A stretch of DNA of 64,000 nt, taken from an uncultured Pseudomonadales bacterium (GTDB taxonomy: Bacteria > Patescibacteriota > Microgenomatia > UBA1400 > UBA12028). The notes under the pieces are model-generated. The model searched no databases. It had not been told where the DNA came from and saw only the letters and a program-made list of their open reading frames with translations. This document shows positions 15,532 through 42,631 of the stretch, one piece after another. Location of the stretch: contig CAZWPK010000001.1 of NCBI GenBank assembly GCA_964635905.1, positions 155,863-219,862 of the forward strand, written 5' to 3'. Position 1 is the first letter of the stretch. Each line of letters opens with the position of its first letter. The position numbers and the translations under genes are program-made.

Positions 15532-15766
15532 AGTAAGTCTACTTAAATGTTCGGATATAGTACAGTAAATTGATTCCAGATCGAATAGGAAGTTTTAGCT
15601 TGAAGAGTATTTTTTGTTAAATAGGTTCTGACGTCCTCCACTAAGCCCTGCAAAATAGAGATAGATTGATATTGCAATCTAAAAACCAACTTTCTCGAAT
15701 ATCGATCCACAAAGACATACAAAACTGGGTTCACAGTGACTTTGGGAAATGATATATTCTTCTTTT

Positions 15767-16113: not shown

Positions 16114-16150
16114 GTTCGAACATCTTCCACGCACCCCAGTAGAATGTCCA
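16113..16150 (+). repeat. Degenerate copy of tRNA-Trp 3' end (T-arm/acceptor-like), repeat A
   Basis: 'GGTTCGAACATCTTCCACGCACCCCAGTAGAATG' begins at the stop codon of the pseudogene. Aligns to tRNA-Trp 3' half 'GGGTCCGATTCCTTCCGCCCCTGCA' and to repeats B-E. Confidence 0.45.
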
Positions 16151-16163
16151 TTGTCATGAAATA

Positions 16164-16778
16164 TTAATCTACGGTAGGAGATTGATGGTTCAAAAACCGG
16201 TCAATTTTATTTTCATGCAAAACAATAAATTCTTCATTGACAATATTGACCTCAGGATCTCTAAGTTCATCAATTAGTCCTACAGCTTGTAACTTTGTGA
16301 GAATCACCCCACTTCGAGTATGACCGTTCTTCCATTGTTCTTGATAAAAATGAATTGCATTAATCGCAGTTTCTCTATCCAATCTCATTCCTGAGAGTAT
16401 TTTTCTGACGGCTTCCCATTCATGGTAGCTATCATCTTCTTTAAATAAACCTAAATTCGCATCAATACTTTTTCGTACATCGCGCATTTCCATTGGGTTC
16501 AGGGGTATGAGAGTTGCCTCAGATGGACTATCGATCAGGCCAAGTAATTCAAGTTTAAGTAAAACCGTGCCTGCTGCTCCCGAACCATTTTTTCGATCTC
16601 TTACTAAAATGTCGATCATCTTTTGAGCTGAAAGATGATCGCCAATCTCTAGGTTGAAAAGGATCTTGTTGATTTCTTGCCAATCGACTGATTCAACATA
16701 CGCCTCACTCCACTCTCTTTTGTTAGAAAAACCTAATCGTTGCCAATCAGGAAGCTGTTGGTGTTGATCACCGTCCAT
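16164..16778 (-). CDS. Hypothetical protein with internal duplicated segment
   Basis: 204 aa. Two similar segments 'GTVLLKLELLGLIDSP' and 'GVILTKLQAVGLIDEL'. No known motif. Confidence 0.4.
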   Translation of the reverse strand: MDGDQHQQLPDWQRLGFSNKREWSEAYVESVDWQEINKILFNLEIGDHLSAQKMIDILVRDRKNGSGAAGTVLLKLELLGLIDSPSEATLIPLNPMEMRDVRKSIDANLGLFKEDDSYHEWEAVRKILSGMRLDRETAINAIHFYQEQWKNGHTRSGVILTKLQAVGLIDELRDPEVNIVNEEFIVLHENKIDRFLNHQSPTVD

Positions 16779-16949
16779 ATGTGATCAGATTAGCACGAAA
16801 TATTTGTGAGAAATAGGCTCCAACATCCATTTGTTTCCACGATATGCAAATGAAGACGCTCACTCCTATATGGGGTATAAGCGAAAGACGACTGGGGAGC
16901 AGTGTTTACGTTATGCCGAAAATATGCAATTGGCTCTAGAACGGAAATT

Positions 16950-16990
16950 GGTTCGAACATCCTCCACGAGTCCCTGCAAGGACATTTTTC
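16950..16990 (+). repeat. Degenerate copy of tRNA-Trp 3' end, repeat B
   Basis: 'GGTTCGAACATCCTCCACGAGTCCCTGCAAGGACAT' shares 'TCCCTGCAA' with the tRNA-Trp end 'CCCCTGCAAA'. Lies 9 nt after the stop of a 32-aa ORF remnant. Confidence 0.45.
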
Positions 16991-17027
16991 TCGAGTAAAA
17001 ACTTTTGACAGACGCGAGGAATCGAAC

Positions 17028-17771
17028 CTAAAACTCTTTTAGGTAACAGATTTTCTTTTCTCCATAAAATCGAAGATTCTTTGCTTTCCCAGCAAAACGT
17101 ATTTCTACAGCTGCAAAGTGTTCTTCAGAATGAAAGCTAAAAGTAAATCCTTTTGAAAAAGCAAGATGAAGAGTGTCTCTTTCTACTGCAAATGACTGGA
17201 ATGAGAGTAGTTTTTCAGCAAGAGAATCAAGAATAGAGTCAATTTCTTTTTTGGAATTTGATGAGCTTTCTATTAATGCTTTACCTTCTTCGTCTTTCAG
17301 ACTCCACTTCGCATAGGTACAAAATACTGAATCATTTGAAAACCGAGCTTGAAGGATGGTTCCATAAACGCGGAATATTTTTGTGATTGCTTGACCTTCA
17401 AGTGCTTGGAAATCTAGAGAGAGCTGGTTTTTCGTGATAGGAACCTTTTGTGCCAGTTGCTTCAACAAGTGGTATCTATCGAAACTATGACAAGCTTTTG
17501 GATTCAGAATCCCTCTATTTCCAACAGGTGACTTTTCAATCCTATCCAATGCATATGCATGGAGTTCGGTTGGGAATGAATAGAGTTCAAACTCTCCCTT
17601 ATCTGTTTCGATAAAATGGCGCCAAACTTTCCGTCCAATATAGTCAAAATAGGTAACGTAGGTGATCGTACCTACTCCGAAGTGGTCAAGGATACCTTGT
17701 AGCACTGGCAAGCTATAAATACTCTTCATGCAACTAATTATATCTTGGAATGGATAAATGGGCTCGATCAT
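17028..17771 (-). CDS. Hypothetical protein
   Basis: 247-aa ORF, AT-rich. No motif recognised. Confidence 0.4.
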   Translation of the reverse strand: MIEPIYPFQDIISCMKSIYSLPVLQGILDHFGVGTITYVTYFDYIGRKVWRHFIETDKGEFELYSFPTELHAYALDRIEKSPVGNRGILNPKACHSFDRYHLLKQLAQKVPITKNQLSLDFQALEGQAITKIFRVYGTILQARFSNDSVFCTYAKWSLKDEEGKALIESSSNSKKEIDSILDSLAEKLLSFQSFAVERDTLHLAFSKGFTFSFHSEEHFAAVEIRFAGKAKNLRFYGEKKICYLKEF

Positions 17772-17934
17772 CTCACGCCTTTGGCGGGCAAGCCTGCAAT
17801 GTTTTAGTTGTTCCCCAGGTGTTTAGAGAAAACCATCTCTAAGGTGGATTAGAATAAAATCTGCAACGGAATTTGATCACGTCGGTTACGTTCGAATTGT
17901 TTCAAGACAAGACCGTCTGTTGTATTGACAAAAC

Positions 17935-18246
17935 ATGTACAAAACCTATCATTCTTGTATGGCTTTAAAGCTTAGTTTTAATGAGGAAAAGAATCAAATA
18001 TTAAAAGCTACTCGCGGAATCTGTTTTGATGATGTGGTTGAAGCGATCAAGAAAAAGAAGCTTTTAGCTACTATTGCTCATCCAAGCACCAAACATTCAA
18101 ATCAGTGGATCTATATCATTGAGATTGAAGGCTATGCCTACGCAGTTCCGTACGTAAAAAACGCAAAAAAAAATGAAATATTTCTTAAAAGTGTCTATGC
18201 AAGTCGATTCATGACAAAAAAGTATATAAAAAGGAGAAGCAAATGA
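17935..18246 (+). CDS. BrnT-family (DUF497) type II toxin
   Basis: ~100-aa protein, 'FNEEKNQILKATRGICFDDVVEAI...IYIIEIEGYAYAVPYV', consistent with BrnT ribonuclease toxin. ATGA overlap with downstream BrnA-like gene. Confidence 0.6.
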   Translation: MYKTYHSCMALKLSFNEEKNQILKATRGICFDDVVEAIKKKKLLATIAHPSTKHSNQWIYIIEIEGYAYAVPYVKNAKKNEIFLKSVYASRFMTKKYIKRRSK

Positions 18247-18548
18247 AAAGAATCCAAGATCCTTTTATCAATCTGGTATTGGACGAAGAAGAGAAAGCAC
18301 TAGAAGAAACCTTTGAGCGCGGAGATTTTGAGGAAGATGCTCATCTTGAAGATACAAAGAAAATGCTGGAAGAAGCTGCTACACGCTATAGTCAGCTACA
18401 TACCTCAAAACCAGTTACCATTCGTATCAAGCAGCTAGATTTAATAAAAGTGAAATCAAGAGCGAAAGCCAAGAATATTCCCTATCAAACATTGATTGGT
18501 TCAGTTATCCATCAATATGCAGAGGGGAATGAAAAATTAAGTTTATAA
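18243..18548 (+). CDS. BrnA-family antitoxin (C-terminal RHH-like)
   Basis: C-terminal 'VTIRIKQLDLIKVKSRAKAKNIPYQTLIGSVIHQYAEG' matches BrnA hallmark (..ITIRLD.D....K..A...G.GYQT.IN..LREY). Confidence 0.65.
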   Translation: MKRIQDPFINLVLDEEEKALEETFERGDFEEDAHLEDTKKMLEEAATRYSQLHTSKPVTIRIKQLDLIKVKSRAKAKNIPYQTLIGSVIHQYAEGNEKLSL

Positions 18549-18550
18549 TA

Positions 18551-18593
18551 GGTTCAAACATTCTCCACGTGTCTTCTCCCAAGAAGTGCACAT
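18551..18593 (+). repeat. Degenerate copy of tRNA-Trp 3' end, repeat C
   Basis: 'GGTTCAAACATTCTCCACGTGTCTTCTCCCAAGAAGTGCACAT' directly after the BrnA stop codon. Confidence 0.45.
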
Positions 18594-18692
18594 CGACAAT
18601 ACGACTCTCCTCAACTAAAACTGCTATCAGAGCAATTGAGAGTATGCATAATAGTAGTTGCAATACTAATCCGCATAATGTATACTCAGTTC

Positions 18693-19868
18693 ATGATTAA
18701 CAGAGCAATTTCTCACAAAATCAAAGAGCTTCATCGAAAATACCCGGTGGTTTCTATCGTGGGCCCAAGACAATCTGGGAAAACTAGCTTGGCACAATAT
18801 CTTTTCCCTAACCATACTTACCATAATTTAGAAAATCTGGATATCTTGAGTCTGGCGAAGAGTGATCCAAAGGGTTTTCTTAAAATAGGCTCAGGAGAGC
18901 GTTTTGTTATTGATGAAATTCAAAAATTTCCAGATTTACTTTCTTATATTCAAGTTGAAGTTGATAGTCAAAAAAAAGATGGACAATTTGTCATCACTGG
19001 ATCACAGAATTTTTCAATTGCAGAAGGCATTTCACAATCATTGGCCGGGAGAGTTGCAAATTTTGTTTTATTACCTCTAACTCATGAAGAAATTACTACC
19101 AGTGAATATTCAAATCCTGTCGCAAACACAATCCAACAAATCATACTAAATGGTTTTTATCCTAGACCTCTGGTAAAAAATATCCAACCAGAGGATTTTT
19201 ATCGTGATTACTTAAGTACATACATCGAGCGAGATGTTCGGCAAATAAAAAACATCGGTGATCTGAGCACTTTTCAGAAATTCTTACAACTTTTAGCAGG
19301 GAGGGTAGGGCAACTTGTTAACTTTTCTTCCCTAGCCAATGATGTGGGGGTGAACTATAAAACGATCGAGTCTTGGTTAAGCATTTTGGAAGCCAGTTAT
19401 GTTGTTTACACGTTGCAGCCCTATTATGAGAATTATGGTAAAAGAGTCATTAAAAGTCCTAAAGTGTATTTTTATGATGTTGGTTTATTATGTCACCTCT
19501 TAAAAATTAATTCTGTTCATGAGCTTGAATCACATTTTGCATATGGTCAAATCTTTGAAAATTTTGTCATTACAGAAATGATTAAAACCAATTTCAATTT
19601 AAGAAAGAATGAGCAAGTCTACTTTTGGAGAGACAGTAATAGTAACGAGATTGATGCAGTGATTGATTCAGGCGAAAATAAACATGGAGTTGAGATCAAA
19701 GCTGGGAGTACTTTTAATATTGACATGCTTAAAGGACTATCGCAATGGCAATCACTAAATCCATCTAAAAATACTCCCACTCATCTGGTCTATAACGGAG
19801 AGCAGGAGCAAAAGGTACGAGATCATCAAGTTGTGAATTGGAAAACATTTCTAAGCAGTTTGAATTAA
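18693..19868 (+). CDS. AAA-family ATPase with DUF4143-type C-terminal domain (COG1373-like)
   Basis: Walker A 'GPRQSGKTSL'. Walker B-like 'RFVIDEIQKFPDL'. Overall architecture typical of the ATPase/DUF4143 family. Start moved to ATG 18693 ('MINRAISHKIKELHRKYPVVSIVGPRQSGKT'). Confidence 0.75.
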   Translation: MINRAISHKIKELHRKYPVVSIVGPRQSGKTSLAQYLFPNHTYHNLENLDILSLAKSDPKGFLKIGSGERFVIDEIQKFPDLLSYIQVEVDSQKKDGQFVITGSQNFSIAEGISQSLAGRVANFVLLPLTHEEITTSEYSNPVANTIQQIILNGFYPRPLVKNIQPEDFYRDYLSTYIERDVRQIKNIGDLSTFQKFLQLLAGRVGQLVNFSSLANDVGVNYKTIESWLSILEASYVVYTLQPYYENYGKRVIKSPKVYFYDVGLLCHLLKINSVHELESHFAYGQIFENFVITEMIKTNFNLRKNEQVYFWRDSNSNEIDAVIDSGENKHGVEIKAGSTFNIDMLKGLSQWQSLNPSKNTPTHLVYNGEQEQKVRDHQVVNWKTFLSSLN

Positions 19869-19870
19869 AG

Positions 19871-19910
19871 GGGTTGAATATCTTCTATTAACCCCTGCAA
19901 ACATAGGTTG
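19871..19910 (+). repeat. Degenerate copy of tRNA-Trp 3' end, repeat D (best match)
   Basis: 'GGGGTTGAATATCTTCTATTAACCCCTGCAAACAT' vs tRNA-Trp 'GAGGGTCCGATTCCTTCCGCCCCTGCAAATAT'. Begins 3 nt after the AAA ATPase stop. Confidence 0.5.
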
Positions 19911-20002
19911 AATCAAAATAATCGATTTTTCTATCAGTCATGCAACTCGCGCACCTTGCTCAAATTTCTTCTGATACTTGATCTGTATAGTATGCTTTAA
20001 CC

Positions 20003-30786: not shown

Positions 30787-31608
30787 TTGGGCATGCGGTA
30801 TACTATACCGCTTATGCCGCATAAAGAGATCGAGATTGCCGCACTGTCAAATCTACCCATCGCAGAAAAGGGAAACGCACAACGACGATTCTCCACTGCG
30901 TTTTGGGAGAGTGTTTTTAAAGAACTGTCAAAATTTCCAGTACTTATTCTTGCGGGAAACCTGTTTGTTTCGTGCCCGGATGATACCGAAGAAATTGTGC
31001 AACGGCGTCTGGATCTGCTGCTACATCTTCTAAAACACGTTCACTCGATTCCAATTGCCATACTTGGGCAGAGAGAAGGAGAGCATGGCCACGCTGACTT
31101 GATAAAGAAGCAACTTCGTAGAGCAGGGGTTAATGTGCTTACGGGATCACCCAAACACCATGTCGTGTCCGTTCGATTTAGAACACATGCGCGATTCCCA
31201 GGTCAGACAATTCGCTTTCTTGGACTATCAGGAGAACGAGCGGGAGTTCGTGTCAGCGTTTCTGATGTTGGGACGGCACAATCGCCAGAAATTCCGCAGA
31301 TTGCAGTCGATGAAGGTCTTCTTCAAACCTATTTGTCTGAGCTTGAATCCACTGAAACAGTGACTCCAGTGATCCCGATCCTTCCGATGGTGATTGATAG
31401 AACGCTTTCCGAAATGCTTGATCAGCATACAACAATGCTCCATTCCGTAATTGTTGGAGCAGGGGACAGACTACATACACCACGCAGCACTACAGGAGGG
31501 GTTCCCATTTACTCTGTGTCGGTACCGACAATGGAGCAACTTCAATTTCGAGATGAAATTAAGCCAATAGATCTGATTACACGCATTCCACTGCATCCAC
31601 GCGACTAG
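30787..31608 (+). CDS. Hypothetical protein
   Basis: 273-aa ORF. Weak 'ILAGNLF' only. No firm family. Confidence 0.3.
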   Translation: MGMRYTIPLMPHKEIEIAALSNLPIAEKGNAQRRFSTAFWESVFKELSKFPVLILAGNLFVSCPDDTEEIVQRRLDLLLHLLKHVHSIPIAILGQREGEHGHADLIKKQLRRAGVNVLTGSPKHHVVSVRFRTHARFPGQTIRFLGLSGERAGVRVSVSDVGTAQSPEIPQIAVDEGLLQTYLSELESTETVTPVIPILPMVIDRTLSEMLDQHTTMLHSVIVGAGDRLHTPRSTTGGVPIYSVSVPTMEQLQFRDEIKPIDLITRIPLHPRD

Positions 31609-32718: not shown

Positions 32719-34461
32719 TTGTTCTACATCGATCCACTGTGCTATACTGATTTTCTTATGCTAAAAAAACTTTTGGCAGTGGTAATAGCGGTGATCGGAG
32801 CAAATTGGCTAGTCTACGGAAATGGTCTCCCAGTGGATGGATCCCTTGGTTCGTTTTATTTCATTCTTCTTGGTAATCTCTGTATTCACTTGGCGTTTTT
32901 TTCGAAACAAGCAACCTCCAAGCAACATCTAGCTAGAGTGGTTTCCGTCCTTTCAGTTGCTTCCTCTTTTCTTGCACTCTTTCGAGCAAGTAACATTGAT
33001 ACCTTTTGGTTGACCGCGCAGTCGTATGGTCTGTCGATGCTGGCTTTGTATGTAAGCGCTCTGTCCCATCTTCAATTTGGTTCCATCGTCGAACTACTGA
33101 TGGTTCCATTCCGGTTATTTTCTGCCTGGATTGATGCCGCAGGGCATCTTCTACATCATGAACTTTCAGCTCTCATTCAACGTAGCACTCAGGGTTTTCG
33201 TACGCATCCCAAAACAGTAAATTTTCGCCAAGAGACCGTATCCGCTCTTCTTCGTGGGGTAGCTATCACGGTTCCCGTGGTCATTGTGGTCGTGAGCCTT
33301 CTGGCGCAGGCAGATCCCATTTTTTCCAACACCATTGAAAATCTCTTTCGACTTCCACATCTGTCCATTAGCATCCCCGGTCGAGTGATCTTTAGCCTCA
33401 TCGTTGCCGCCGTACTAGCGCCCGTGGCATTTTTGCGTATTTCAAGAGAGTTTCATTCACCACTGATGCGATCGGACTATAAGAAATTCGGATTAGAATT
33501 TTCAATGCTCGCTGGAGCGGTAGCTAGTGTATTGGCACTCTTTCTCGTCATTCAATTCCGTTATCTCTTCCTAGTTGTACCTGATCAATCCTTGCAGTCC
33601 TTTGGCATGGCCACCTACTCTGACTATGTGCGCAAAGGCTTTGGCGAACTCCTCGTTGTAGCCATGATTGTGTATAGCGTGGTTGCCACAAGCTATGTGG
33701 TGTTTCGAGCGCAAGGAGCAACGGGCACGCTTCTCAAGCGACTTAATTTAGTCCTGCTCACAGAAATGGGTATTTATATTCTCTCGATTCTTCGGCGCGT
33801 CATGCTCTATCAAGCAGAGCATGGGTTAACCCGAGTGCGTGTCTATGGAACGTTATTCTTAGGGATGTTAATTGCGTTGACTGTGGTTCTTCTACTGCGC
33901 TATCTGGCAACCAAGAAACGAGCTTGGTATCGAATGGAAGCGGGGATTGTGATCAGTACGGTGCTTCTTTCTGGGCTGCTGAATGTGGATCATTTGATTG
34001 CCACTGTCTGGAAACCCACGGTAAACAAGGAGGTTGACTATATGTATATCGCCCGGTTATCTGCGGATGCCAGTGAGGGCTGGATCCAAGCTGTCGAAGA
34101 GATCAAACAACTTCCATCTCCCCGTTGGTTAACGCAAACACGTTACACCGACGAGGAAGCCCGACAAATTGTCTATAGCTACCGGACCTTAAACCAGCTC
34201 ATCGATACCTATGGAGTATTGGCATGGGATTACGGAACGAGGCTTGATCAAGTTGTCTTTCATCCCGACTACACCAAACCCACTTCGCCACTACGGTATA
34301 ACATTGCCAAAGCACGCGCATACCAACAACTGCACGCAACCATTCCTCCTAGTACCATGCAGGAGTATGTTTCGATCTATCGACAACTGTATGCAAAACT
34401 GTCACCAAAGCAAAAGAACATGCTCTATGATCGTTCCTACGAGTCACCGTTAACGCAGTAA
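32719..34461 (+). CDS. Polytopic membrane protein, unknown function
   Basis: 580 aa with >10 hydrophobic segments. Confidence 0.35.
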   Translation: MFYIDPLCYTDFLMLKKLLAVVIAVIGANWLVYGNGLPVDGSLGSFYFILLGNLCIHLAFFSKQATSKQHLARVVSVLSVASSFLALFRASNIDTFWLTAQSYGLSMLALYVSALSHLQFGSIVELLMVPFRLFSAWIDAAGHLLHHELSALIQRSTQGFRTHPKTVNFRQETVSALLRGVAITVPVVIVVVSLLAQADPIFSNTIENLFRLPHLSISIPGRVIFSLIVAAVLAPVAFLRISREFHSPLMRSDYKKFGLEFSMLAGAVASVLALFLVIQFRYLFLVVPDQSLQSFGMATYSDYVRKGFGELLVVAMIVYSVVATSYVVFRAQGATGTLLKRLNLVLLTEMGIYILSILRRVMLYQAEHGLTRVRVYGTLFLGMLIALTVVLLLRYLATKKRAWYRMEAGIVISTVLLSGLLNVDHLIATVWKPTVNKEVDYMYIARLSADASEGWIQAVEEIKQLPSPRWLTQTRYTDEEARQIVYSYRTLNQLIDTYGVLAWDYGTRLDQVVFHPDYTKPTSPLRYNIAKARAYQQLHATIPPSTMQEYVSIYRQLYAKLSPKQKNMLYDRSYESPLTQ

Positions 34462-34521
34462 TCTGGAGGGCATGGAAGGAAGACTGCAACTTGTGCTACT
34501 GTGTAAGAAGAGCGCAATGGT

Positions 34522-35313
34522 ATGAACTACCCACAAATATTCTTGGAATCTTTTGATGTTCTTACGTTATTGATGGCCACAACCGTATTTTTTTGGCTAA
34601 TTCTGGTTGCATCTTGGGTTGTGATTCTTGTTTTTTTCATTATCACCAGAGGGAAATTTCTCAAAAAAAGTCAGAAAAAAGTGGAAGCTGTCAAAAAACT
34701 GACAAAGAAAGAGAAAAATATCATTCTGGAAAGGCAAAGTCGATACTTCCTTGGCGTGGTAGGTGGTGCTTTGTTTCTATCGATTAGTATCGGTCATTTT
34801 GTCGGTTGGTATTTGCAGGAGAGTGTTCTTATTGCAATCTTGTCTTTGGGCCTACTTTGGATTCTATGGATGCTCCGATCGATGAAGCTTCCAGCGTGGA
34901 TAATGGCCACTCCACTTATCTTGGCGATCACTCTGGCTGTGGTGATCACAGCTAATCAAGGGATACTCGTGTATCCTGATCGGGTAGTGTATAAAAGTGT
35001 CACCAGTGACAAGGGTTCTTTCTCCCGAGAGTTTTTCGCTACACCCAAGATGCAACTGATTATTTACTGTTGGAAAAACCCTCGAAGAGGTGGATACCGA
35101 CGAGTGGAACTACCACGACTTTGTGGGAGTTATTTAAACTCGCCAACAGTCGCCCGTTTTGGTGTGGTAGGAGATATCAACACCCGTCGCATTGATGACA
35201 TTAATGCGGTCATCATTTCCACGTTCAATCTTGTCTGCACTGGTTCCCCCTATATCGATGACAATCCCTTCTTCTTTGAAGTTATCTGCCGCAAAAATCC
35301 GACCCTTGATTAG
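34522..35313 (+). CDS. Membrane protein, unknown function
   Basis: Four N-terminal TM segments then soluble C-terminal region. Confidence 0.35.
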   Translation: MNYPQIFLESFDVLTLLMATTVFFWLILVASWVVILVFFIITRGKFLKKSQKKVEAVKKLTKKEKNIILERQSRYFLGVVGGALFLSISIGHFVGWYLQESVLIAILSLGLLWILWMLRSMKLPAWIMATPLILAITLAVVITANQGILVYPDRVVYKSVTSDKGSFSREFFATPKMQLIIYCWKNPRRGGYRRVELPRLCGSYLNSPTVARFGVVGDINTRRIDDINAVIISTFNLVCTGSPYIDDNPFFFEVICRKNPTLD

Positions 35314-35615
35314 GCGAACCTAGCGTGTGCCATGCACGCAGTATGACTCTGCATTTTGACAATACCGTCGACCCTCTAAAAGTGGTCGCACGCGATCAAG
35401 CTAGCTGTTTCTAGTGTGAAGAGCATTAATGAGCATCTAACTATGATATAGTCATTCAATATGGTTCAGTGCGGAGTGAGAAGAAGTCCGAAAATTCTGC
35501 CAATTTCTCGAGAACAGGGTCACTTTATTCTTACATGTCGCTTACTCCCTTGTGGTGGGGGATTGTCCAAGAGAAGTCATGCTATACAATCATCATCAGC
35601 AATCGTGGAGTATCT

Positions 35616-36218
35616 ATGAAAAACAATTTGTTTCACCGCAGTACCTATCTTTCGATTCCGCTAGCCCTACTCCTTGCAGCAACCCCAGTTCAGGCAGCCA
35701 CCATACAAGACCTCTCTGCAGAATCCTCGTATTGGTGTAATACCAAGGTCACCATTCCCATCGATGGCTTGGATCCGGATTTTCGCTATCAAGTCCGCGT
35801 AGAGCAAATCTCCACCAGAAGCTGTCGTACGGGCACCGATACCTCTGGCTCGTGGACCAATAACGGAAAGATTGTCTCTCCCACTGGCTCTACAATCTGG
35901 AACTACAATTTCGGTGAATATGGCACCTTTCGAGCCAGTGTCTGGCAAGAAGGGAAGGAACTCAGTTCTATCTGCTTTGAAATTGCCGCCCAAGGACAGC
36001 TAAAAAATGTGGAAAAAGGCTGTGGCACTCGAGTAAACTTGTCAACAACCGGTTTCTCAACTCCCACCCCAACCCCCAGAGTCGTCTATGTTTATCCGAC
36101 CACCTCTATCAACCGACCTTCGGATACTGTGCTTTCTGACATTCAAAAGGCATTTGATGAGTTCCTGCGACGCTACTACCCAAGCCTCGTCAGTGACGTA
36201 AGAGTCTATCGAAACTAA
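35616..36218 (+). CDS. Secreted hypothetical protein (signal peptide)
   Basis: 'MKNNLFHRSTYLSIPLALLLAATPVQAAT' signal-like. Start at ATG 35616 after GGAG. Confidence 0.4.
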   Translation: MKNNLFHRSTYLSIPLALLLAATPVQAATIQDLSAESSYWCNTKVTIPIDGLDPDFRYQVRVEQISTRSCRTGTDTSGSWTNNGKIVSPTGSTIWNYNFGEYGTFRASVWQEGKELSSICFEIAAQGQLKNVEKGCGTRVNLSTTGFSTPTPTPRVVYVYPTTSINRPSDTVLSDIQKAFDEFLRRYYPSLVSDVRVYRN

Positions 36219-36495
36219 GACCAGAAGTTCCTTCTCTCACTTCCTCAAGAACTTGCTTTCCAGATAGGCCTGTAATATAATAGAACGCTTGGTTATAAGG
36301 CTAATTGCCTGTATCCAAGTTGTCTTGTTTTTCCTAGCGTATCGACACGATACACCCAGGGAATACACCGACAAATTGCCCTTTTCCATGTGTGATCAAT
36401 AAACCCAATTTCCAGGTGGAACCAGTGGGGATACATCAAGTGTCCCTAGTATTCCGCCTGGAAAGCAGTCCAGGGGATGAGCGAAAGAGGGAAAG

Positions 36496-37161
36496 TTGAA
36501 GACAGATCGCGTCTTTAAGTTCGCAATCGTACTGATTCTAGCGCTGATTGCGTTAGCATCGGTGCTGATGTTCGTTGTTTCAGAGGTCGGTGCTCAAGGG
36601 CACCCGATCATCACAATTTTGCGGACAGAGCCCCGTGATCCAGGGGCTAGGGTTTGGTTCAATGTCCAGAACATGCCCGCCGGTTGGCGGGTCTTGTTCG
36701 ACGACGGGCGCGCCGCCTACCCGTCGAGCGTTGAAACCAGCTCCGAAGTTTGGAGCTGGTGGTTTTACCCAGGGCAGTATCAACTGTCCTTCGGAGTTCC
36801 GGGTAACACCAGGACAATGTGTCTGGTGGTGGGCCCAGACCACCAGGTAAGCTTTTGTCCGGTAGTTTCCGCAGCGACGTTGACGCCCATCCCTGCCCAA
36901 GCTCCTGCGGAAGGTCTCGTGGGGTTCAACGCCCCTCCTCCGGATCAAAACTGGGTTCAGGTTTTGGCTCCCAGGCTCAGAATTCGGGAATGCCCAGCGC
37001 TCTCTTGCCAGGTTGTCGCGCGTGCAACCTGGCACTCGTACCTTATTCAACTGGCCGCTGAGCCGGTCCTCGCGGACGGCTACACCTGGGTCCCCGTCTC
37101 TTGGGGACCCGGGCTGCAAGGTTGGACCGCGGCGGAGTACACGACGTACGCCGCCGGCTAG
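36496..37161 (+). CDS. Membrane-anchored protein with C-terminal SH3b-like domain; body encoded by a ~65% GC segment
   Basis: N-terminal TM 'FAIVLILALIALASVLMFVV'. C-terminal 'YLIQLAAEPVLADGYTWVPVSWGPGLQGWTAAEY' SH3b-like. GC3-rich codons from ~36590. Confidence 0.45.
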   Translation: MKTDRVFKFAIVLILALIALASVLMFVVSEVGAQGHPIITILRTEPRDPGARVWFNVQNMPAGWRVLFDDGRAAYPSSVETSSEVWSWWFYPGQYQLSFGVPGNTRTMCLVVGPDHQVSFCPVVSAATLTPIPAQAPAEGLVGFNAPPPDQNWVQVLAPRLRIRECPALSCQVVARATWHSYLIQLAAEPVLADGYTWVPVSWGPGLQGWTAAEYTTYAAG

Positions 37162-37287
37162 AATCACATGGAAGAGGATCTCCCGTGCCCCGAAAGGGGT
37201 GCGGGAGAATCCGAGAAATTTATCGTAGTTGTTTAACGTAATGAAGACAAACTTGTCACCCATGCATCATAAGAAATTTAAAACCAT

Positions 37288-37773
37288 ATGTCGAAAAATG
37301 AACGATTAATCCTTCCAAATAAGCGTGTCCTTACAGACCCGAGGGAGGTTGCCAAATTTGAACGCATTGCCTCCACTCCGAATCCGTATGCAATTGATAC
37401 GCTCTATGCAGGTCGTTTTGCTGCAGATCAATTCAAAATGGTCACAGGAATCGTAGCGGTCTATGAAGAAGATGATCCAGAGTATGGAACGATACGTGGG
37501 CATGTCCATCGGGTTCCAGATGTGGAAGTTACCAAACCTAGTAAGACTCGACCCGATGCACACTATTATTTTTTGGTAAAACCAAAAATAGGAAAAACGA
37601 TTTTAATTAGACTGACTGCGACGAATTCCTTAAAAGTTATTCAGTATTCGCTAGATGAATTTCCAGCGAATGGATCAACTTTCCTTAAAGGAAATCTGGA
37701 AGAACAGCGTGATTTTATGATACGAACGTATCATAATTTTTTAGCGTCCTATTTTCAAAATCATCGAGAATAA
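37288..37773 (+). CDS. Hypothetical protein (paralog of 37795-38271)
   Basis: 161 aa. 'PNPYAIDTLYAGR' and 'HRVPDVEVTKPSKTRPD' align with the next ORF. Confidence 0.4.
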   Translation: MSKNERLILPNKRVLTDPREVAKFERIASTPNPYAIDTLYAGRFAADQFKMVTGIVAVYEEDDPEYGTIRGHVHRVPDVEVTKPSKTRPDAHYYFLVKPKIGKTILIRLTATNSLKVIQYSLDEFPANGSTFLKGNLEEQRDFMIRTYHNFLASYFQNHRE

Positions 37774-37794
37774 GGTTCTTTAAAAGCAGTACCT

Positions 37795-38271
37795 ATGACT
37801 GAATCCATGTATCGACTTGTAACCGCAACCGCAGTCATTACGGATGAAGATCTGCAGCTTGAATTTATTCGACGTGCTGGGATCCCAAACCCACAAGCGT
37901 CAACCTTGCTCTTGCGTAAGAGACCTGTTGCGCTAGAATTTACCCCGGTTGTGCCAAAAGTAGCTCAAGTTCAAAGAAATGATCCTCAAAGAGGGTGGGT
38001 CAATGATCAACCGGTGTATAGAGTGCCTGATCTATGGATTACCCATCCTGACTATCCTGATTTCAAGGACAGTCTGATTTTTCAGGTACTGACCGGTCAA
38101 CACCAATCTATTTTGGTTCAATTAAGTGTCAGTCATGTGCTAGAAAATATTCAAGCTCAGCTTCGGCAAGAACGAAGTCTTGTAAATAGGAATAGTCTAT
38201 TAGTAAAAGAACAACAAATCCTGTATAAGTACCAATCGTATTTGGCATTCCGCTTCGGACGCCGCAGTTAA
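37795..38271 (+). CDS. Hypothetical protein (paralog of 37288-37773)
   Basis: 158 aa. 'PNPQASTLLLRKR' and 'YRVPDLWITHPDYPDF' align with the upstream ORF. Confidence 0.4.
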   Translation: MTESMYRLVTATAVITDEDLQLEFIRRAGIPNPQASTLLLRKRPVALEFTPVVPKVAQVQRNDPQRGWVNDQPVYRVPDLWITHPDYPDFKDSLIFQVLTGQHQSILVQLSVSHVLENIQAQLRQERSLVNRNSLLVKEQQILYKYQSYLAFRFGRRS

Positions 38272-38282
38272 AAAAGAACCCT

Positions 38283-38666
38283 ATGAAACTTATTGAAGCC
38301 GCTGGACAACGAACACAAAATAAAACATTTAATAGACCGCCCATTACCCATGGATATGCCTTCAACGCACAGCATCAAAAAATTCCATCTGAAATATCTC
38401 AGGCGGATGTCTATCAAGCGATTGCGGATGCTCGGAAAGATGGAACACTAATCCGTTTGGATAAAGGAAAATATGTTTTTGATTACAACAGCTTTTCTTC
38501 ATTGCAAGAACTGATTGCAACGCTGTATCAATTAGAACCAAACTCCGATCGAGAAATTCACTATGTTATTTTGCCCCTTGATCTTAAGGAGGATCAGAAG
38601 GTAGCTCCTTCCCGAAGTCAAGAATTTTGGAACACTGTTCCCACTCTTTCCCGTCCCCGGGATTAG
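38283..38666 (+). CDS. Hypothetical protein
   Basis: 127-aa ORF, 11 nt after the previous gene. Confidence 0.35.
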   Translation: MKLIEAAGQRTQNKTFNRPPITHGYAFNAQHQKIPSEISQADVYQAIADARKDGTLIRLDKGKYVFDYNSFSSLQELIATLYQLEPNSDREIHYVILPLDLKEDQKVAPSRSQEFWNTVPTLSRPRD

Positions 38667-38683
38667 CGAGTACACTGTAGCGT

Positions 38684-39034
38684 ATGGCTTCGCGTGTCTT
38701 TCACAATCTCATTTGGACTAATCATGCGCTCGATCGACTCGAAGAACGCAAACTTTCCCAATCCATTGCCTGGACTGCGTTTCGCTATCCCGACAAGGTC
38801 CTGAAGGGACGCCTCCCAGGTTCCTTTGAATACCAAAAACGCTATCAATCCTCTCTCATTACCCTCATTGCTAAGAAAAATGATCAAGGGGAATGGGTGG
38901 TGCTCTCTGTCTGGATCGATCCACCGCTAGCCGGTACCTGGGATGCCAAGAAGAAAGCCTACTGGAAGGAATATCAAAAAGCCGGATTTTTTGGCAAATG
39001 GTGGGTGATCTTTAAACAAACACTACATATCTAG
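38684..39034 (+). CDS. Small protein resembling DUF4258 family
   Basis: 'NHALDRLEERKLS' near N-terminus (H-A..R..ER pattern). Weak by-eye assignment. Confidence 0.3.
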   Translation: MASRVFHNLIWTNHALDRLEERKLSQSIAWTAFRYPDKVLKGRLPGSFEYQKRYQSSLITLIAKKNDQGEWVVLSVWIDPPLAGTWDAKKKAYWKEYQKAGFFGKWWVIFKQTLHI

Positions 39035-39047
39035 GCATTCTCTTTCT

Positions 39048-39257
39048 ATGAACAGAACTGTATTTAGCTACCAGTGGATAGCCTCCTTTCTTAAACCAAG
39101 CTCACAGGTCTCGGAGCAGCAAATGAAGTCTGCTATTGAGAATAATGTAAAAAAGTTTGGAAAAACCTACGATCTACTATCTGAATATGACAGAAAGAAT
39201 CTTCGAGATCCCGAAGTTTTGGCTAAGCCTTTACAGTTGCAGAATATTTCACTGTAA
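39048..39257 (+). CDS. Hypothetical small protein
   Basis: 69 aa, last gene of the tight 37288-39257 same-strand array. Confidence 0.25.
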   Translation: MNRTVFSYQWIASFLKPSSQVSEQQMKSAIENNVKKFGKTYDLLSEYDRKNLRDPEVLAKPLQLQNISL

Positions 39258-39665
39258 CGCATTTGCAATATTGCTAATGCTATAACAGTAATCATTGCAT
39301 CCTTCTGATATACTATCGCAAGGAAGTGACCATAATCACAAAAAGAATGACGTATTGAATTGGCGTGTGGCCCTAGGTAATTTCTTGGGGAGACGAGGAG
39401 AGGGGCGAATCTTTGAATGAGATTCGCAATCGGACTGAATAGTTGGAAAACCAACGATTCAAGTATCTGCGGGAACCCTCCGGTGCATGAACATCGTTAC
39501 GACGGTCAGTTAAACCTCTTTTGTAAAAAAGAGAACAAAGCTGTCTTCCGGATTCATCTTCTTTTTGATTCGCTTGCTTCTTTCAATAGATCCACTGTTT
39601 AACGTGGCGGTATAACGCTGCAGTTAACTTTGGTGACTTTTTATAGCGCCCTAAGGAGCTAAACT

Positions 39666-41408
39666 ATGTGTGGAATTTTTTGTACCGTGGGAACCAACCC
39701 GACAGCCGCCCAACGCACGCTTGAAGGATTAAAAACTCTAGAATATCGTGGGTATGACAGTTGGGGAGTAGCATTTGCAGACCTTCGTTCTCAAGTGGAA
39801 GTGTATAAACAAGTTGGCAAGATCGGAAAAGCGACGCTTCCAGCGATTCCGGATAACACCATCGCGATTGGACATACCCGTTGGGCAACCCACGGGGGAG
39901 TGACGGTAGAAAATGCCCATCCCCATACCGATTGTTCTGGACGCTTTGCAATCGTGCATAACGGCATTGTGGAAAACTACCAGGAACTCAAAAACGAACT
40001 AACAGCAGTAGGGCACACGTTTACTTCCACGACGGACTCTGAGACCATCGCCCATCTAGTCGAAGAACTTTCCAAGACCGACGCCATCGATCAAGCGGTG
40101 CTGCACACCGCCAAACGCTTACGGGGACTAAACGCCATCATTGTCTTGGATGCAAAAACTCAACGGCTGTATGCAGTTTGCCAAGGATCCCCCTTAGTCG
40201 TTGCCAAGAATGATCAAGGATATCAATTGGCCAGTGATGCGGTCGCCTTCACCGATCCATTAACCCAAGTCCTCTACCTGTCCCCAGGATACATGGTGGA
40301 ACTTTCGCTAGATTTCTGTCGACTCAGTACCATTGACACGAACTCCGAAGAACCCTTAGCCTGGCAACCACTTCCTAAGCTCAATGCCAGTACCCAGTTA
40401 GGCCCACATCCGCATTACCTGATCAAAGAGATCCATGAGCAGCCAGGACTGGTTCGTACCCTAGCCGGAAGTGAAAGTACTCCGATTGCATTCTCTCCTA
40501 GTGGTCGAGTCTTCCTAATCGGTTGTGGAACGGCCTATCATGCCGCATTGCTGGCAACCTACTGGTTTGCCCAAACAGGAAAACTTGCGTCGGCATATAG
40601 CGGCAGTGAGTTCTTTTCGATTCGTCATGTCGTAAGCTCGAAAGATACTGTGATCTTTTATTCCCAGAGTGGAGAGACGATTGATGTGGTTGAACATGCA
40701 CGGTATTTGGCAGAGAAGAAGATTTCCACAATCGCCATCACCAACAACGCCCATTCCTCGCTGGCACGCATCGTACACACCGTCATACCCTTGGACGCCG
40801 GAACTGAGCAATCGGTCTTGGCAACCAAGTCATTCACGCTAATGCTGGCGCATTCCTTGCGATTACTGCACCCCATGGAAACACTCAAAAGTGACTTCCT
40901 GGCTGCAGCCAACGCGATGGACGCGCTCGTTTCGGTTCCAGCCTTGGAACAAACAATCACCCCGGTTGCGAATCTGATCAAGTCGACCCAGCATTTATTT
41001 GTCATCGGACGTGGTGTCTGGTATCCCTTGGCTCTCGAAGCTGCCTTAAAAATAAAAGAGGTGACCTACATCCATGCGGAAGGATTTGCGGGAGGGGAAC
41101 TCAAACATGGAGCAATCGCCCTCATTTCAACGGGAACCCCATGTTTGGTCTTTGTCCCGAACGATGACTCTAGAGAGATCATTCTCTCCAATGCAATGGA
41201 ACTGAAGGCCCGCGGAGCAGTGTTAATTGGAATATCGTCCACCAATGAAGAAATGTTTGATTTCCACATTCCGGTTGCCTGGACCAACCAAGCGGCGCCA
41301 CTGACCGCCATTGTGCCGATGCAGCTGTTGGCTTATCAACTCGCAATTCTCTTGGGACGCGATCCGGATAAACCACGTAACTTAGCAAAATCTGTCACTG
41401 TACGCTAG
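39666..41408 (+). CDS. glmS: Glutamine--fructose-6-phosphate aminotransferase (isomerizing)
   Basis: N-terminal nucleophile 'MCGIFCTVG', GATase-2 'RGYDSWGVA', 'HTRWATHG', two SIS domains, C-terminal 'GELKHGAIALI' and 'LAYQLA..LGRDPDKPRNLAKSVTV'. Confidence 0.9.
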   Translation: MCGIFCTVGTNPTAAQRTLEGLKTLEYRGYDSWGVAFADLRSQVEVYKQVGKIGKATLPAIPDNTIAIGHTRWATHGGVTVENAHPHTDCSGRFAIVHNGIVENYQELKNELTAVGHTFTSTTDSETIAHLVEELSKTDAIDQAVLHTAKRLRGLNAIIVLDAKTQRLYAVCQGSPLVVAKNDQGYQLASDAVAFTDPLTQVLYLSPGYMVELSLDFCRLSTIDTNSEEPLAWQPLPKLNASTQLGPHPHYLIKEIHEQPGLVRTLAGSESTPIAFSPSGRVFLIGCGTAYHAALLATYWFAQTGKLASAYSGSEFFSIRHVVSSKDTVIFYSQSGETIDVVEHARYLAEKKISTIAITNNAHSSLARIVHTVIPLDAGTEQSVLATKSFTLMLAHSLRLLHPMETLKSDFLAAANAMDALVSVPALEQTITPVANLIKSTQHLFVIGRGVWYPLALEAALKIKEVTYIHAEGFAGGELKHGAIALISTGTPCLVFVPNDDSREIILSNAMELKARGAVLIGISSTNEEMFDFHIPVAWTNQAAPLTAIVPMQLLAYQLAILLGRDPDKPRNLAKSVTVR

Positions 41409-41425
41409 GTATATACTAGGGCTTA

Positions 41426-42631
41426 ATGTCGGAACTGTTGCGTTCTACGTTGGGTGACTATGCTCTTTCCCAAGAGTTGTGGGGGGCATGGAGTGGAATT
41501 TTCATCCAGCGTGAAAACAAAACCGCCAGCCCTCCCATGTCCCGACGTGCATTCCTTGGTCTTCTTGCCCAAGCAGGGGTAGCCACCGGAGGACTGCTAG
41601 CCGCGCGTAGCGTGGAAAATTATTCCGTCCCCTGGGAACTTACCGATGACGAACGGCAGCAGTTTATTAACAAAGCCGCGCAATTTCCGGACCAAGAATA
41701 TGGGATCCACCCGGATTTTGAATATCCCAGCCTGGAAGATCCTGATCCAGAGGCTTGGACCAAATCGTCAGATTTTTTGCATGCATTAGAAGGCGATCAT
41801 TTTGCCACCGTATTTGTGGCGTTGCAGGATTGTGAAATTCCTGTTGCCATGGAAAAGACCCGCCGGCGTATCCACATGATGCTCAAACGCAACATTCGAC
41901 CGCTTATAAGTTTGGGGCTGCGAAAGCGCGGAATGGTAGGACATCCGTTTGACGCAGTGAATGAACGTCAGCTGATCGACTGGATGAAGCGGTGGGCGCA
42001 GTTTCTGCACGGATTTAAAGATGTCCCGATGGATATTCGTTTCTTATTTGAAATGCAGGTTCCACCCTTAAGCTGGGTAACCTATGCGCGATCCTGGAAC
42101 ATGGATGAGCAGTTTCATGCAGAACGTTTTCGCTACCTGCATACCCAGATGTATCACTTCACCCAGACACTGGGAATTAGTAACCTTCGTTTTGTATTGT
42201 GTGGGTCTTCAGCCGGTGGATCCTTACTTCCTTATGTTCCCAATGAAGGAGTAGGTGCTATCGGAACCGACCTGTTTGATTTCTCTGGAGGAAAGACGAA
42301 TCTTTTTGCTGCGTTTAATTTGGTGTTTGGTCTCTCCTATGTCACCCGGGAGGTGGATCGAACCTTGGCAGATGTGCAAGAAGCTTCCATTCTTGCCGGC
42401 AATGTTCCGATGTACTTGTCTGAAATTGGCTCACTAACCCATGATGTTGCCTGGACGGAGTCGGTACTCCTGAAAGCCTTTTCTAAGGGCTTTAACGGTG
42501 CGGGGTGGCTCAATTACAATAAGACGTATACCAATCGGCCCACAGAAACCGATTGGAACGTTACCCCAGAAATTCTTTCGATGTTGGTCAACTTGCAGAA
42601 AGCCATCAACGCACAGCGCGTGCGCAACTAA
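41426..42631 (+). CDS. Hypothetical exported protein with Tat-type signal
   Basis: 'MSRRAFLGLLAQAGVATGGLLAARS' twin-arginine motif S-R-R-x-F-L. Confidence 0.4.
   Translation: MSELLRSTLGDYALSQELWGAWSGIFIQRENKTASPPMSRRAFLGLLAQAGVATGGLLAARSVENYSVPWELTDDERQQFINKAAQFPDQEYGIHPDFEYPSLEDPDPEAWTKSSDFLHALEGDHFATVFVALQDCEIPVAMEKTRRRIHMMLKRNIRPLISLGLRKRGMVGHPFDAVNERQLIDWMKRWAQFLHGFKDVPMDIRFLFEMQVPPLSWVTYARSWNMDEQFHAERFRYLHTQMYHFTQTLGISNLRFVLCGSSAGGSLLPYVPNEGVGAIGTDLFDFSGGKTNLFAAFNLVFGLSYVTREVDRTLADVQEASILAGNVPMYLSEIGSLTHDVAWTESVLLKAFSKGFNGAGWLNYNKTYTNRPTETDWNVTPEILSMLVNLQKAINAQRVRN

Follow-up and report, generated by a model that had tools for sequence, protein, structure and literature searches.

A GC-rich, strain-variable gene for a predicted secreted SH3b-type protein between conserved, complementary mRNA flanks in a low-GC genome

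GC-rich islands in low-GC genomes are usually taken as recent horizontal transfers or as misassemblies. In the stretch of DNA analysed here (64,000 nucleotides of contig CAZWPK010000001.1, positions 155,863 to 219,862, hereafter the window), we describe an island that is instead old, syntenic and compositionally stationary, and which is formed by a single gene together with a hairpin just past its stop codon. It is firmly supported that this gene (the target) is real, old and syntenic, coding for a predicted secreted SH3b-type protein; that its coding cassette is exchanged or reshuffled between strains, while the conserved non-coding flanks stay fixed; and that a GC-rich composition is common to all versions of the cassette and is not visibly decaying. 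Additionally, computation supports an mRNA which is predicted to be unusually structured and closed by pairing between its leader and its trailer. The reading that we favour, with a probability of about 0.5, is that the gene has an old, possibly foreign composition which is being maintained rather than lost, and which is linked to the structured mRNA.

The segment 36590-37215, put by an earlier note on this DNA at about 65% GC in a 47% GC genome, measures 61.3% GC against 44.8% for the whole window, so that the excursion stands with slightly lower figures. The quantitative GC plot proposed in that note as a check contains the excursion as its maximum: over 600-bp windows (mean 0.448, standard deviation 0.047) the highest value, 0.612, lies at the target region (about 3.5 standard deviations), and a 200-bp sliding profile climbs from about 0.47 to 0.59-0.65 over about 36500-37200, then falls to 0.40. 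The island coincides with the mature-protein part of one gene on the forward strand, 36496-37161, plus the GC-rich hairpin past the stop, and the reading frame does run continuously from the signal or transmembrane region into the GC-rich body, as the note had said. The apparent 5' edge near 36590 is no junction, because the GC content at third codon positions (GC3; GC1 and GC2 likewise for the first and second) is raised from the start codon onwards (0.57-0.60 already in the first 30-45 codons), and the dip in total GC over the signal peptide comes from hydrophobic codons, which push GC2 down to 0.27-0.40. The edge near 37215 is abrupt, because the GC-rich hairpin at 37176-37212 stands directly after the stop codon and ends there. 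The parts of the gene are:

36496-37161, + strand: coding sequence (CDS), 221 aa, TTG start, with signal peptide, N-domain type 1 and divergent SH3b domain (from the ratio of nonsynonymous to synonymous substitution rates, dN/dS, the open frame and the composition)
36496-36594, + strand: predicted signal peptide or N-terminal anchor, MKTDRVFKF, a hydrophobic stretch and VGA, then QG (read from the sequence; AQG motif invariant)
36598-36870, + strand: N-domain type 1, W- and C-rich, predicted all-beta (AlphaFold strands, predicted local distance difference test score, pLDDT, 50-67)
36931-37158, + strand: SH3b-alpha, a divergent bacterial SH3 (SH3_3-like) domain (by family-profile homology)

The coding sequence has a GC content of 0.595 (GC1/2/3 = 0.61/0.51/0.66), and the other 63 open reading frames (ORFs) of the window a mean of 0.44 (0.52/0.38/0.41); the target is the top outlier of the 64 non-overlapping ORFs, with z = 3.4 for GC and for GC3, which is the atypical base composition and codon usage looked for in a recently transferred gene or island. 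"GC3-saturated", as the codons had been described, overstates a GC3 of 0.66. The excess has two sources. The protein (rich in Ala, Pro, Val, Gly and Trp, with 0.9% Lys) would by its amino-acid sequence alone, written with the host's codon preferences, give 53% GC, the highest value among the 64 window genes; and synonymous choice raises GC3 to 0.66 from the 0.46 expected, an excess (+0.195) that is also the largest of the window genes. From the total of 0.16 over the other window genes, about 0.09 is thus due to protein composition and the rest to synonymous GC3 enrichment. Translational codon-bias selection was provisionally rejected as the cause, the GC3 of 0.66 being well above that of the top housekeeping gene (mreB, 0.53); the window has no ribosomal protein genes.

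Among 5.8 billion protein clusters, the window protein finds no more than three relatives, all from related genomes. Two of the related loci, L001 (on a 146-kb contig) and L002, have the gene order DUF4153, a 263-aa gene, g249 (a secreted protein of about 200 aa), the target and an array of 160-aa paralogues, and where the L001 contig runs on, glmS and a P-type ATPase come after the array. With g249 as anchor, additional loci were recovered (L085, L086, L094 and L095). Two short contigs, L087 and L088, stop before the target site. L085 has the same allele as L002; L086, a partial copy, comes from a metagenome-assembled genome (MAG) with the NCBI label Candidatus Woesebacteria; L094 has a third allele type at the target site; and L095, from an independent sequencing run, is identical to the window wherever the two were compared, which covers p161, the 3' element, CDS and leader as well as three upstream genes. 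Sequencing runs in which this lineage occurs are SRR25168019, SRR31757421, SRR21621038 and SRR29476923/27. In L001, L002/L085, L003, L086 and L094 the corresponding syntenic position is taken by GC-rich orthologues, the complete copies forming GC islands of 57-62% within contigs of 45-47% GC, and the mature-protein part of the partial L086 copy reaching 66%. Patchy presence and empty sites, as a recent transfer might leave them, were not seen, since the gene stands at the same site in 7 of the 7 related loci recovered. Judged by that one NCBI label on a related MAG, the host genome resembles Candidatus Woesebacteria of the candidate phyla radiation (CPR). A scan of GTDB species representatives anchored on glmS gave no match above 47% identity, by which neither the source genome nor a close relative is among them.

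We give next to no credence to the two origins which the earlier note had raised, a chimeric assembly or a recent in-frame fusion of a foreign domain. The compositional contrast itself is all that speaks for them, and it is set against an allele and flanks that are 100% identical in the independent sample L095, syntenic GC-rich orthologues in five further assemblies from different samples, a GC3 that is high from codon 1 across the whole CDS, and an ancient divergence of the alleles, which are saturated at synonymous sites.

Codon alignments of the sense frame with the orthologues give dN/dS values of 0.14-0.24, which indicate purifying selection, and the frame is open at all loci; these values, together with the protein homology, rule out a structured non-coding RNA in place of a gene. 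The start codon is TTG or GTG, followed by AA, in every allele (window, at 36496, and L001, L002, L003, L086 and L094), so that a weak start codon is conserved across the allele types. On the opposite strand lies one long frame, of the kind which the note had called spurious, and correctly so:

36580-37263, - strand: antisense ORF, 227 aa, a spurious by-product of the GC-rich coding sequence (from the ORF list; unconserved)

This frame is stop-free over 228 aa in the window, against 154, 115 and 177 aa in the orthologues, and was ruled out as a true gene since it is not conserved there as an ORF. The gene caller used on the identical contig of L095 annotated this antisense ORF (L095 4673-5356, -) and not the real gene, and the real 221-aa product of the window has no record in the protein collection. 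Public annotation can thus place GC-rich genes of low-GC genomes on the wrong strand, and gene callers do mis-annotate the target locus.

The variability of the target exceeds that of its surroundings. Against L001, its protein is 73% identical (dS 0.92, dN 0.22), compared with 93-97% for backbone genes (dS 0.26-0.49), and the type-A alleles (see below) are roughly equidistant from one another (73, 67 and 71% identity) though the backbone of L002 is far more distant. Across loci the CDS is 46-73% identical to the window allele, the immediate flanking genes reaching 88-93%; for L094, a CDS of 46% DNA identity adjoins g249 at 88% and p161 at 91%. Sliding identity places breakpoints within the gene, with 92% in the N-domain core and 59-69% in the signal peptide and the C-terminal half. 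Three domain architectures were found:

Type A (window, L001, L002): N-domain 1 and SH3b-alpha
Type B (L003; partial in L086, N-domain only): N-domain 2 and SH3b-alpha
Type C (L094): N-domain 2 and a different, canonical SH3_3 domain

No similarity was detected between N-domains 1 and 2, and N-domain 2 weakly resembles SH3_5. All cassettes share the end of the signal peptide (AQG) and a C-terminal AAG-stop, and the domains are homologous within each type.

Such a pattern could also arise if high-GC ORFs of foreign origin had been captured time and again into one fixed expression slot, as in integrons or cassette exchange, with each type a separate import. Three architectures with non-homologous N-domains in one slot between conserved flanks, every one of them GC-rich, agree with this origin, which we nevertheless consider distinctly unlikely: the flanks have no integrase and no attC-like repeat (each locus has a single hairpin, and the neighbouring genes are not followed by one), no Pfam recombinase was found among ten genes scanned at 32719-42631 nor in the precomputed Pfam hits listed for the related loci, no donor sequences turned up in protein clusters, representatives, JGI metagenomes or IMG/VR, and the shared AQG, the AAG-stop and the homology within types fit recombination inside one gene family better. 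An integron gene cassette in the strict sense was rejected, as neither repeated attC sites nor an integrase were seen in the flanks. A target of a diversity-generating retroelement was rejected as well, given that blastn and tblastn detected no further copy of the gene, whole or in part, in the 64-kb window; no reverse transcriptase family was found in the neighbouring genes scanned, a part of the ORFs of the window.

The composition of the cassette is stationary. When L002 is compared with the remaining alleles of type A, synonymous differences approach saturation (proportion of differing synonymous sites, pS, 0.66-0.68), with a GC3 of 0.66-0.70 in each of them, and GC3 is held at 0.64-0.70 in all alleles against about 0.41 in window genes, from which it follows that the composition is not recent. 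All four domain modules are GC-rich, and the leader within the same expression unit has a host-like GC of 0.47. Pooled polarised synonymous changes number 29 from G or C to A or T and 19 in the reverse direction, from 75 and 25 ancestral sites, respectively. They give an equilibrium GC3 of 0.66 for the target, equal to its current value, and of 0.48 for backbone genes (estimates for which parsimony is weak at this divergence, given saturation and three taxa only). An amelioration in progress, with an excess of GC-to-AT changes and GC3 decaying first, is therefore not what we see. As for other traces of a recent transfer, the neighbours are DUF4153, unknown proteins and glmS, with no adjacent mobility genes, tRNA or att sites (the two tRNAs of the window are 24-29 kb away) and no direct repeats of the cassette, and among 1.8 billion representative proteins there are only distant SH3_3 repeat proteins, with no donor lineage holding close homologues.

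An old origin in a high-GC lineage is a different matter, and is plausible. The ratio of Gly, Ala, Arg and Pro to Phe, Tyr, Met, Ile, Asn and Lys (GARP/FYMINK) is 2.1 in the target and 2.5 in its mature part, the median of out-of-family SH3b profile matches is 2.1 and window proteins have 0.7-1.3; the closest out-of-family relative, P0004, lies on a 62% GC contig (GC1/2/3 = 0.65/0.51/0.74). This amino-acid bias of the high-GC type and the P0004 contig make such a source plausible, although the similarity is remote and composition-matched profile matches are partly to be expected. Carried to its full extent, this becomes an alternative to maintenance: an old horizontal transfer from a high-GC donor (e.g. 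Actinomycetota or Chloroflexota) into the ancestor of the lineage, followed by slow amelioration under protein constraint, with an incidental RNA structure and flanks that are ordinary regulatory sequences. The GARP/FYMINK values, which fit the SH3b matches and not host proteins, and P0004 as nearest outside relative favour it, as do the synonymous changes on the window lineage (13 from G or C to A or T, 3 in the reverse direction). We consider it rather unlikely, because GC3 stays at 0.64-0.70 in all alleles in spite of near-saturation, with an equilibrium at the current value; because in the Lawrence-Ochman regressions GC1 and GC3 both fit a genome of about 56-58% GC, with no sign of GC3 decaying first; because high-GC organisms among the 1.8 billion representatives have no relatives above about 40% identity, and N-domain 1 has none there; and because it leaves unexplained the folding energies (z -5 to -8 against GC-preserving shuffles) and the conserved consensus structure described below.

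In the framework of Lawrence and Ochman, compositionally atypical genes and islands are reportedly attributed to horizontal transfer with subsequent amelioration. The target resembles such genes in that one gene departs widely, in GC, GC3 and amino-acid usage, from what is normal for the host; it differs from them in having no mobility genes, in being present in all sampled relatives, in its native, conserved regulatory flanks and in showing no sign of amelioration although synonymous sites are saturated. A recombination hotspot with GC-biased gene conversion would be another way to a high GC content, and the locus is indeed a mosaic, with breakpoints in and around the gene. Neighbours which are equally or more recombinant or divergent are, in contrast, not GC-rich (GC3 0.44-0.52 in g263, 0.31-0.40 in g127 and 0.30-0.35 in p161), and the leader inside the target unit has a GC of only 0.47, which makes this process quite improbable as the cause.

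The flanks of the cassette are better conserved than its coding sequence, and the RNA evidence that follows is all computational and comes from five distinct alleles. The features are:

36253-36281, + strand: promoter-like site, -35 TTGCTT (36253-36258), 17-nt spacer, -10 TATAAT (36276-36281), of putative function
36288-36495, + strand: 5' leader, about 200 nt, non-coding, GC about 0.47 (from conservation across loci)
36380-36392, + strand: leader segment CCTTTTCCATGTG, complementary to the first bases past the stop (inverted repeat I2)
36409-36464, + strand: long leader hairpin, 24 bp (TTTCCAGGTGGAA...TTCCGCCTGGAAA; inner stem GGGGATAC/GTGTCCC) (inverted repeat I1, alifold consensus)
36820-36849, + strand: candidate internal mRNA hairpin (CTGGTGGT...ACCACCAG), in the codons for MCLVVGPDHQV (from double changes that keep pairing)
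37165-37177, + strand: 3' segment CACATGGAAGAGG, complementary to leader 36380-36392 (inverted repeat)
37176-37212, + strand: 3' hairpin, 16-bp GC-rich stem, GAAA loop, about -32 kcal/mol, no U-tract (near-invariant)

The 280 nt from g249 to the start codon are far better conserved than the CDS, even against loci with a synonymously saturated backbone. The promoter-like sequence GGCCTGTAATATAAT is invariant in 6 of the 6 aligned loci (pattern TTGCyT-N17-TATAAT), and a simple promoter scan leaves the site unflagged, its -35 in the window matching at only 3 of 6 positions. Over 190 aligned nt the leader is 77-93% identical to the window, with long invariant blocks; it ends in a purine-rich GAGGG (near 36485), resembling a Shine-Dalgarno (SD) sequence, just ahead of the TTG start, and a stop at 36478-36480 in the window implies that it is not read in frame. 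Directly past the stop codon, all alleles have a stretch of about 50 nt with 88-97% identity to the window, which includes the invariant hairpin sequence CCCCGAAAGGGGTGCGGGAG; the sequence beyond is unrelated between loci. Leader and trailer each occur once per locus (nhmmer), being unique to the target gene, and the 3' hairpin is unique within the window. As the stem-loop is followed by AATCCGAGAAAT, with no U-tract, and a terminator scan made no call, it does not qualify as an intrinsic terminator.

These flanks match no catalogued RNA. A search of 36000-37700 against Rfam 15 gave no match at E<=1, the positive control (the glmS ribozyme, 39351-39557) being detected, and the leader alone gave only microRNA-hairpin matches at noise level (E 0.5-8); signal recognition particle RNA and 6S RNA were rejected for the leader, with no Rfam match and a candidate motif that is not conserved. 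A 19-mer scan of the leader in JGI metagenomes yielded five chance matches inside unrelated high-GC coding sequence, and the same leader scanned against IMG/VR yielded nothing.

The leader segment 36380-36392 (CCTTTTCCATGTG) is the reverse complement of 37165-37177. In 5 of the 5 alleles the predicted leader-trailer duplex has 13-14 bp and a dG of -21.5 to -23.6 kcal/mol, which at most 1 in 1000 shuffles reach, and it also appears in the minimum free energy (MFE) structure of the full transcript in all five. One position of 37165-37177 varies (G in the window and L094, A in the others) opposite a leader U; since G.U alternates with A-U, the pairing is kept only on + strand RNA. Changes within the leader hairpin all keep pairing as well (U.G to U-A, C-G to U.G), co-varying with allele type, and two adjacent pairs of the 3' hairpin read G.U/U.G (window, L002), A-U/U.G (L001, L003) or A-U/U-A (L094), a variation that again keeps pairing on + strand RNA and in which one step is a double change.

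Inverted repeats around a gene may also be DNA sites of an invertase, which would make the gene invertible and phase-variable, and the 13-nt repeat 36380-36392 / 37165-37177 does flank the gene downstream of the promoter. Such a switch is most improbable here: the orientation is the same in 7 of 7 assemblies, no recombinase family was found in the neighbouring genes scanned, the variable position is compatible (G.U/A-U) only as + strand RNA, and the predicted fold of the sense RNA is more stable than that of the antisense by 33 kcal/mol.

Complementary untranslated regions (UTRs) have precedents. In the hbs mRNA of B. subtilis, 5'-UTR and 3'-UTR interact at long range over 14 bp, which modulates cleavage by RNase Y (PMC5737220). 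The target shares with this type a conserved complementarity between 5' and 3' UTR in one (predicted) transcript: as in hbs, the structured 5' leader of a short predicted mRNA is complementary over 13-14 bp to the 3' UTR of that mRNA, and the 3' partner adjoins a terminal hairpin. By analogy, the pairing may plausibly affect nuclease access or the stability of the mRNA. The target differs from hbs in being known from computation alone, in its unrelated CPR-type host, and in a coding region which is GC-rich, hypervariable and predicted to be unusually structured. In the icaR mRNA of S. aureus, the 3'-UTR pairs with the SD region (PMC3868564). This too is an intramolecular 5'-3' UTR pairing, and by the same kind of analogy the target duplex could be a substrate of RNase III; the pairing segment 36380-36392, however, lies about 100 nt upstream of the SD-like GAGGG and leaves it uncovered, so the arrangement is not of the icaR type, and the 3' UTR has about 55 nt in the target against more than 300 nt in icaR.

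The coding region itself is predicted to fold unusually well. When its MFE was compared with those of synonymous-codon shuffles (which preserve protein, codon usage and GC), the z-scores were -5.5 for the window, -8.0 for L001, -3.0 for L002, -2.3 for L094 and -1.3 for L003. As controls, 14 (AT-rich) window genes had a mean z of about -0.8 (range +0.9 to -3.6), and 12 GC-matched ORFs of high-GC genomes a mean of -0.78, 11 of them within +1.2 to -1.5 and one at -5.4. This outlier is a + strand ORF from offset 3718 of L010, a Thermomicrobium sp. contig, and may overlap a structured RNA or a repeat. Dinucleotide shuffles, run with an independent tool, gave z -6.5 for the sense strand (MFE -308.7 kcal/mol) and -3.8 for the antisense (-275.7 kcal/mol), an asymmetry which G.U pairing on the mRNA strand predicts.

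Conservation of the fold points the same way. The alifold consensus of the three type-A alleles has z -7.4 against codon-column shuffles (-4.45 for the mature part only), with five control genes at -0.3 to -2.4. By sub-region, z is -4.0 for N-domain 1 and -4.35 for N-domain 2 (three alleles), -1.7 for the linker plus SH3b-alpha (type-A) and -1.2 for SH3b-alpha (four alleles). In the hairpin at 36820-36849 two pairs have changed on both sides and are still paired: C-G to U-A in L001, through Leu CTG>TTG and Gln CAG>CAA, both synonymous, and G-C to A-U in L002. Globally, 18 pairs are changed on both sides, compared with 9.4 +/- 2.0 in controls.

These observations could be joined in a mechanism. 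The promoter-like sequence, the leader of about 200 nt and the 3' hairpin, near-constant between strains, would form a fixed expression site, between whose flanks the coding cassette is replaced or reshuffled into the three architectures; the conserved flanks might at the same time serve as homology arms for allele replacement. Leader and trailer would pair over 13-14 nt and close the transcript, the GC-rich composition would be retained through selection for a strongly structured mRNA, and the whole architecture may control mRNA stability or nuclease access, as well as translation, by analogy with the hbs mRNA. In its strongest form, which we advance tentatively and hold to be somewhat doubtful, the proposal is a closed, structured mRNA cassette specific to this lineage of CPR bacteria, whose composition is set by selection at the RNA level and not by mutation bias or recent transfer. 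Were this so, strains could swap host-cell-wall-binding modules under one fixed regulatory device.

Several points weigh against a link of maintained composition and mRNA structure. The causal direction may run either way, and the structure could be a consequence of the GC content. The type-B and type-C alleles are unremarkable in folding (z -1.3 and -2.3) though just as GC-rich, and the SH3b-alpha segment has no significant conserved structure (z -1.2) and yet is equally GC-rich. One AT-rich control reaches z -3.6 and one GC-rich control -5.4. Most pairs of the leader and the hairpins are invariant and thus uninformative on structure, which leaves the covariation thin, and we give little weight to the global pair counts, whose structure was derived from the same three sequences. 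The distinct alleles are only five, the host taxon depends on the single NCBI label of a related MAG, and the protein model is of low confidence (pLDDT 48).

Concerning the gene product, its N-terminus (K/R residues, about 22 hydrophobic residues and VGA-QG; residues 2-32 a helix in the AlphaFold model) reads as a Sec signal peptide or anchor, by which the protein is predicted to be secreted or membrane-anchored, in support of the signal or transmembrane segment claimed by the note. An SH3b-like C-terminus, also claimed there, gains support indirectly, through profile homology and through Pfam scores that are sub-threshold or belong to another allele. A family profile run against the 1.8 billion representative proteins matched 263 at E<=1e-3 and 47 at E<=1e-10, mostly over its last ~70 positions (~135-207) and usually with 3-5 matched stretches per protein. 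SH3_3 (PF08239) is present in 9 of the 10 matches checked; 7 of the 8 top-ranked ones have 3-5 tandem SH3_3 copies (E 1e-26 to 1e-67), and one is a TPR-plus-SH3_3 protein. Against the SH3_3 model (54 positions, cutoff 27), the orthologue P0001 reaches 20.5 bits over positions 2-52 and the orthologue P0002 17.1 bits over positions 2-53, and the L094 allele, with 32 bits, is above the gathering score. The window protein itself has no match to Pfam SH3_3 even at E<=10; its C-terminal domain is accordingly called a divergent SH3b on transitive grounds, through homologues that are bona fide SH3_3 proteins, and not as a direct member of the family.

N-domain 1 has no Pfam match. Outside the family it matches P0138, a repeat protein without Pfam family (E 3.5e-6), and more weakly P0085 and P0148, where the matched stretches also cover the SH3b region. 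The AlphaFold model, built from four sequences, has a pLDDT of 48 overall and of 25-39 for residues 122-221, in which short strands are predicted. Other searches with the protein were negative: PDB at sequence level, Pfam and PHROGs at E<=0.01, PADLOC (for the neighbours also) and a protein-pattern scan of JGI metagenomes, as was a word-indexed search with the C-terminal 90 residues, which missed the orthologues as well.

Compared with SH3b (SH3_3, PF08239) cell-wall-targeting domains, the C-terminal ~70 residues are homologous at profile level, and the putative signal peptide and the small modular architecture recall secreted SH3b proteins and lysins, the L094 allele passing the Pfam cutoff. 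Unlike them, the target has a domain without Pfam match in the window allele, no catalytic domain and an N-domain 1 without family, and ligand binding is predicted from sequence. The protein probably binds cell wall; as the genome is of the CPR type, the wall may be that of a host organism. Being a strain-variable, predicted secreted SH3b protein, it is a candidate attachment factor with which CPR bacteria might hold on to the cell wall of the organisms they live on.

In one population of a CPR Gracilibacterium with a 29% GC genome, a surface-protein gene is hypervariable in a PTD-repeat region (PMC6851277). The target is similar in being one locally hypervariable gene of a CPR genome, for a probably extracellular protein that seems pressed to diversify, and dissimilar in swapping whole domains between strains, in forming a GC island and in its conserved RNA flanks. 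Pairing between 5' and 3' UTR, SH3b proteins and compositional islands are each already known; neither Rfam nor the searched literature describes the combination present in this CPR-type genome (a stationary GC island, a hypervariable modular cassette, pairing flanks and a CDS predicted to be exceptionally structured). Should it be confirmed, the target would offer a clear instance of RNA-level selection maintaining gene-level base composition in a protein-coding gene, and the candidate phyla radiation, still poorly understood, would have a regulatory mRNA architecture of a new kind.

The neighbourhood of the target is a recombination mosaic, DUF4153 of L094 having 65% nucleotide identity against 88% for g249 and 91% for p161. 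Two neighbouring genes, neither of them GC-rich, stand out against L001 among genes at 93-97%: the 263-aa gene at 34522-35313 (53% identical, dS 2.6) and a 127-aa gene at 38283-38666 (52% identical, dS 1.2). The gene g249 (35469-36218), a conserved secreted protein of about 200 aa and of no known family, is given 249 aa in the ORF list, from an upstream GTG; its likely true start is 35616, orthologues being called at 195-200 aa, and its relatives are five among 5.8 billion clusters, one of them in a Candidatus Woesebacteria MAG. Between the 263-aa gene and g249, L002 (2779-4261) and L085 (6416-7898) have two extra genes, NTP_transf_5/DUF6036 and a metallophosphoesterase, and L086 (6975-7724) has only the metallophosphoesterase; further upstream, a 273-aa gene of the window (30787-31608) is absent from L001 (alignment gap ~30900-31600).

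Directly downstream of the target, at 37288-38271, is the tandem array of cytoplasmic-looking paralogues of about 160 aa, with no Pfam, PHROGs or PADLOC match. It has 2 copies in the window, 3 in L001 (10858-12355), 3 in L094 (5702-7189) and 5 in L002 (6008-8475), and its divergence is uneven (76-90% identity with L001, 23-44% with L002). The layout resembles that of immunity-type genes beside a secreted protein; no functional link was seen. The glmS ribozyme (RF00234, 39351-39557) scores 45.3 bits (gathering 37) and lies upstream of glmS (39666-41408), in intergenic DNA that aligns poorly with L001. Finally, a low-GC stretch at ~11950-20000, with 600-bp windows below 0.38 and genes of 0.33-0.39 GC (GC3 ~0.29-0.33), contains a tRNA-Trp (12360-12431) as well as a cytochrome P450 (12539-13783) of the type associated with cyclodipeptide synthases, and may be a second compositional island, of opposite sign.

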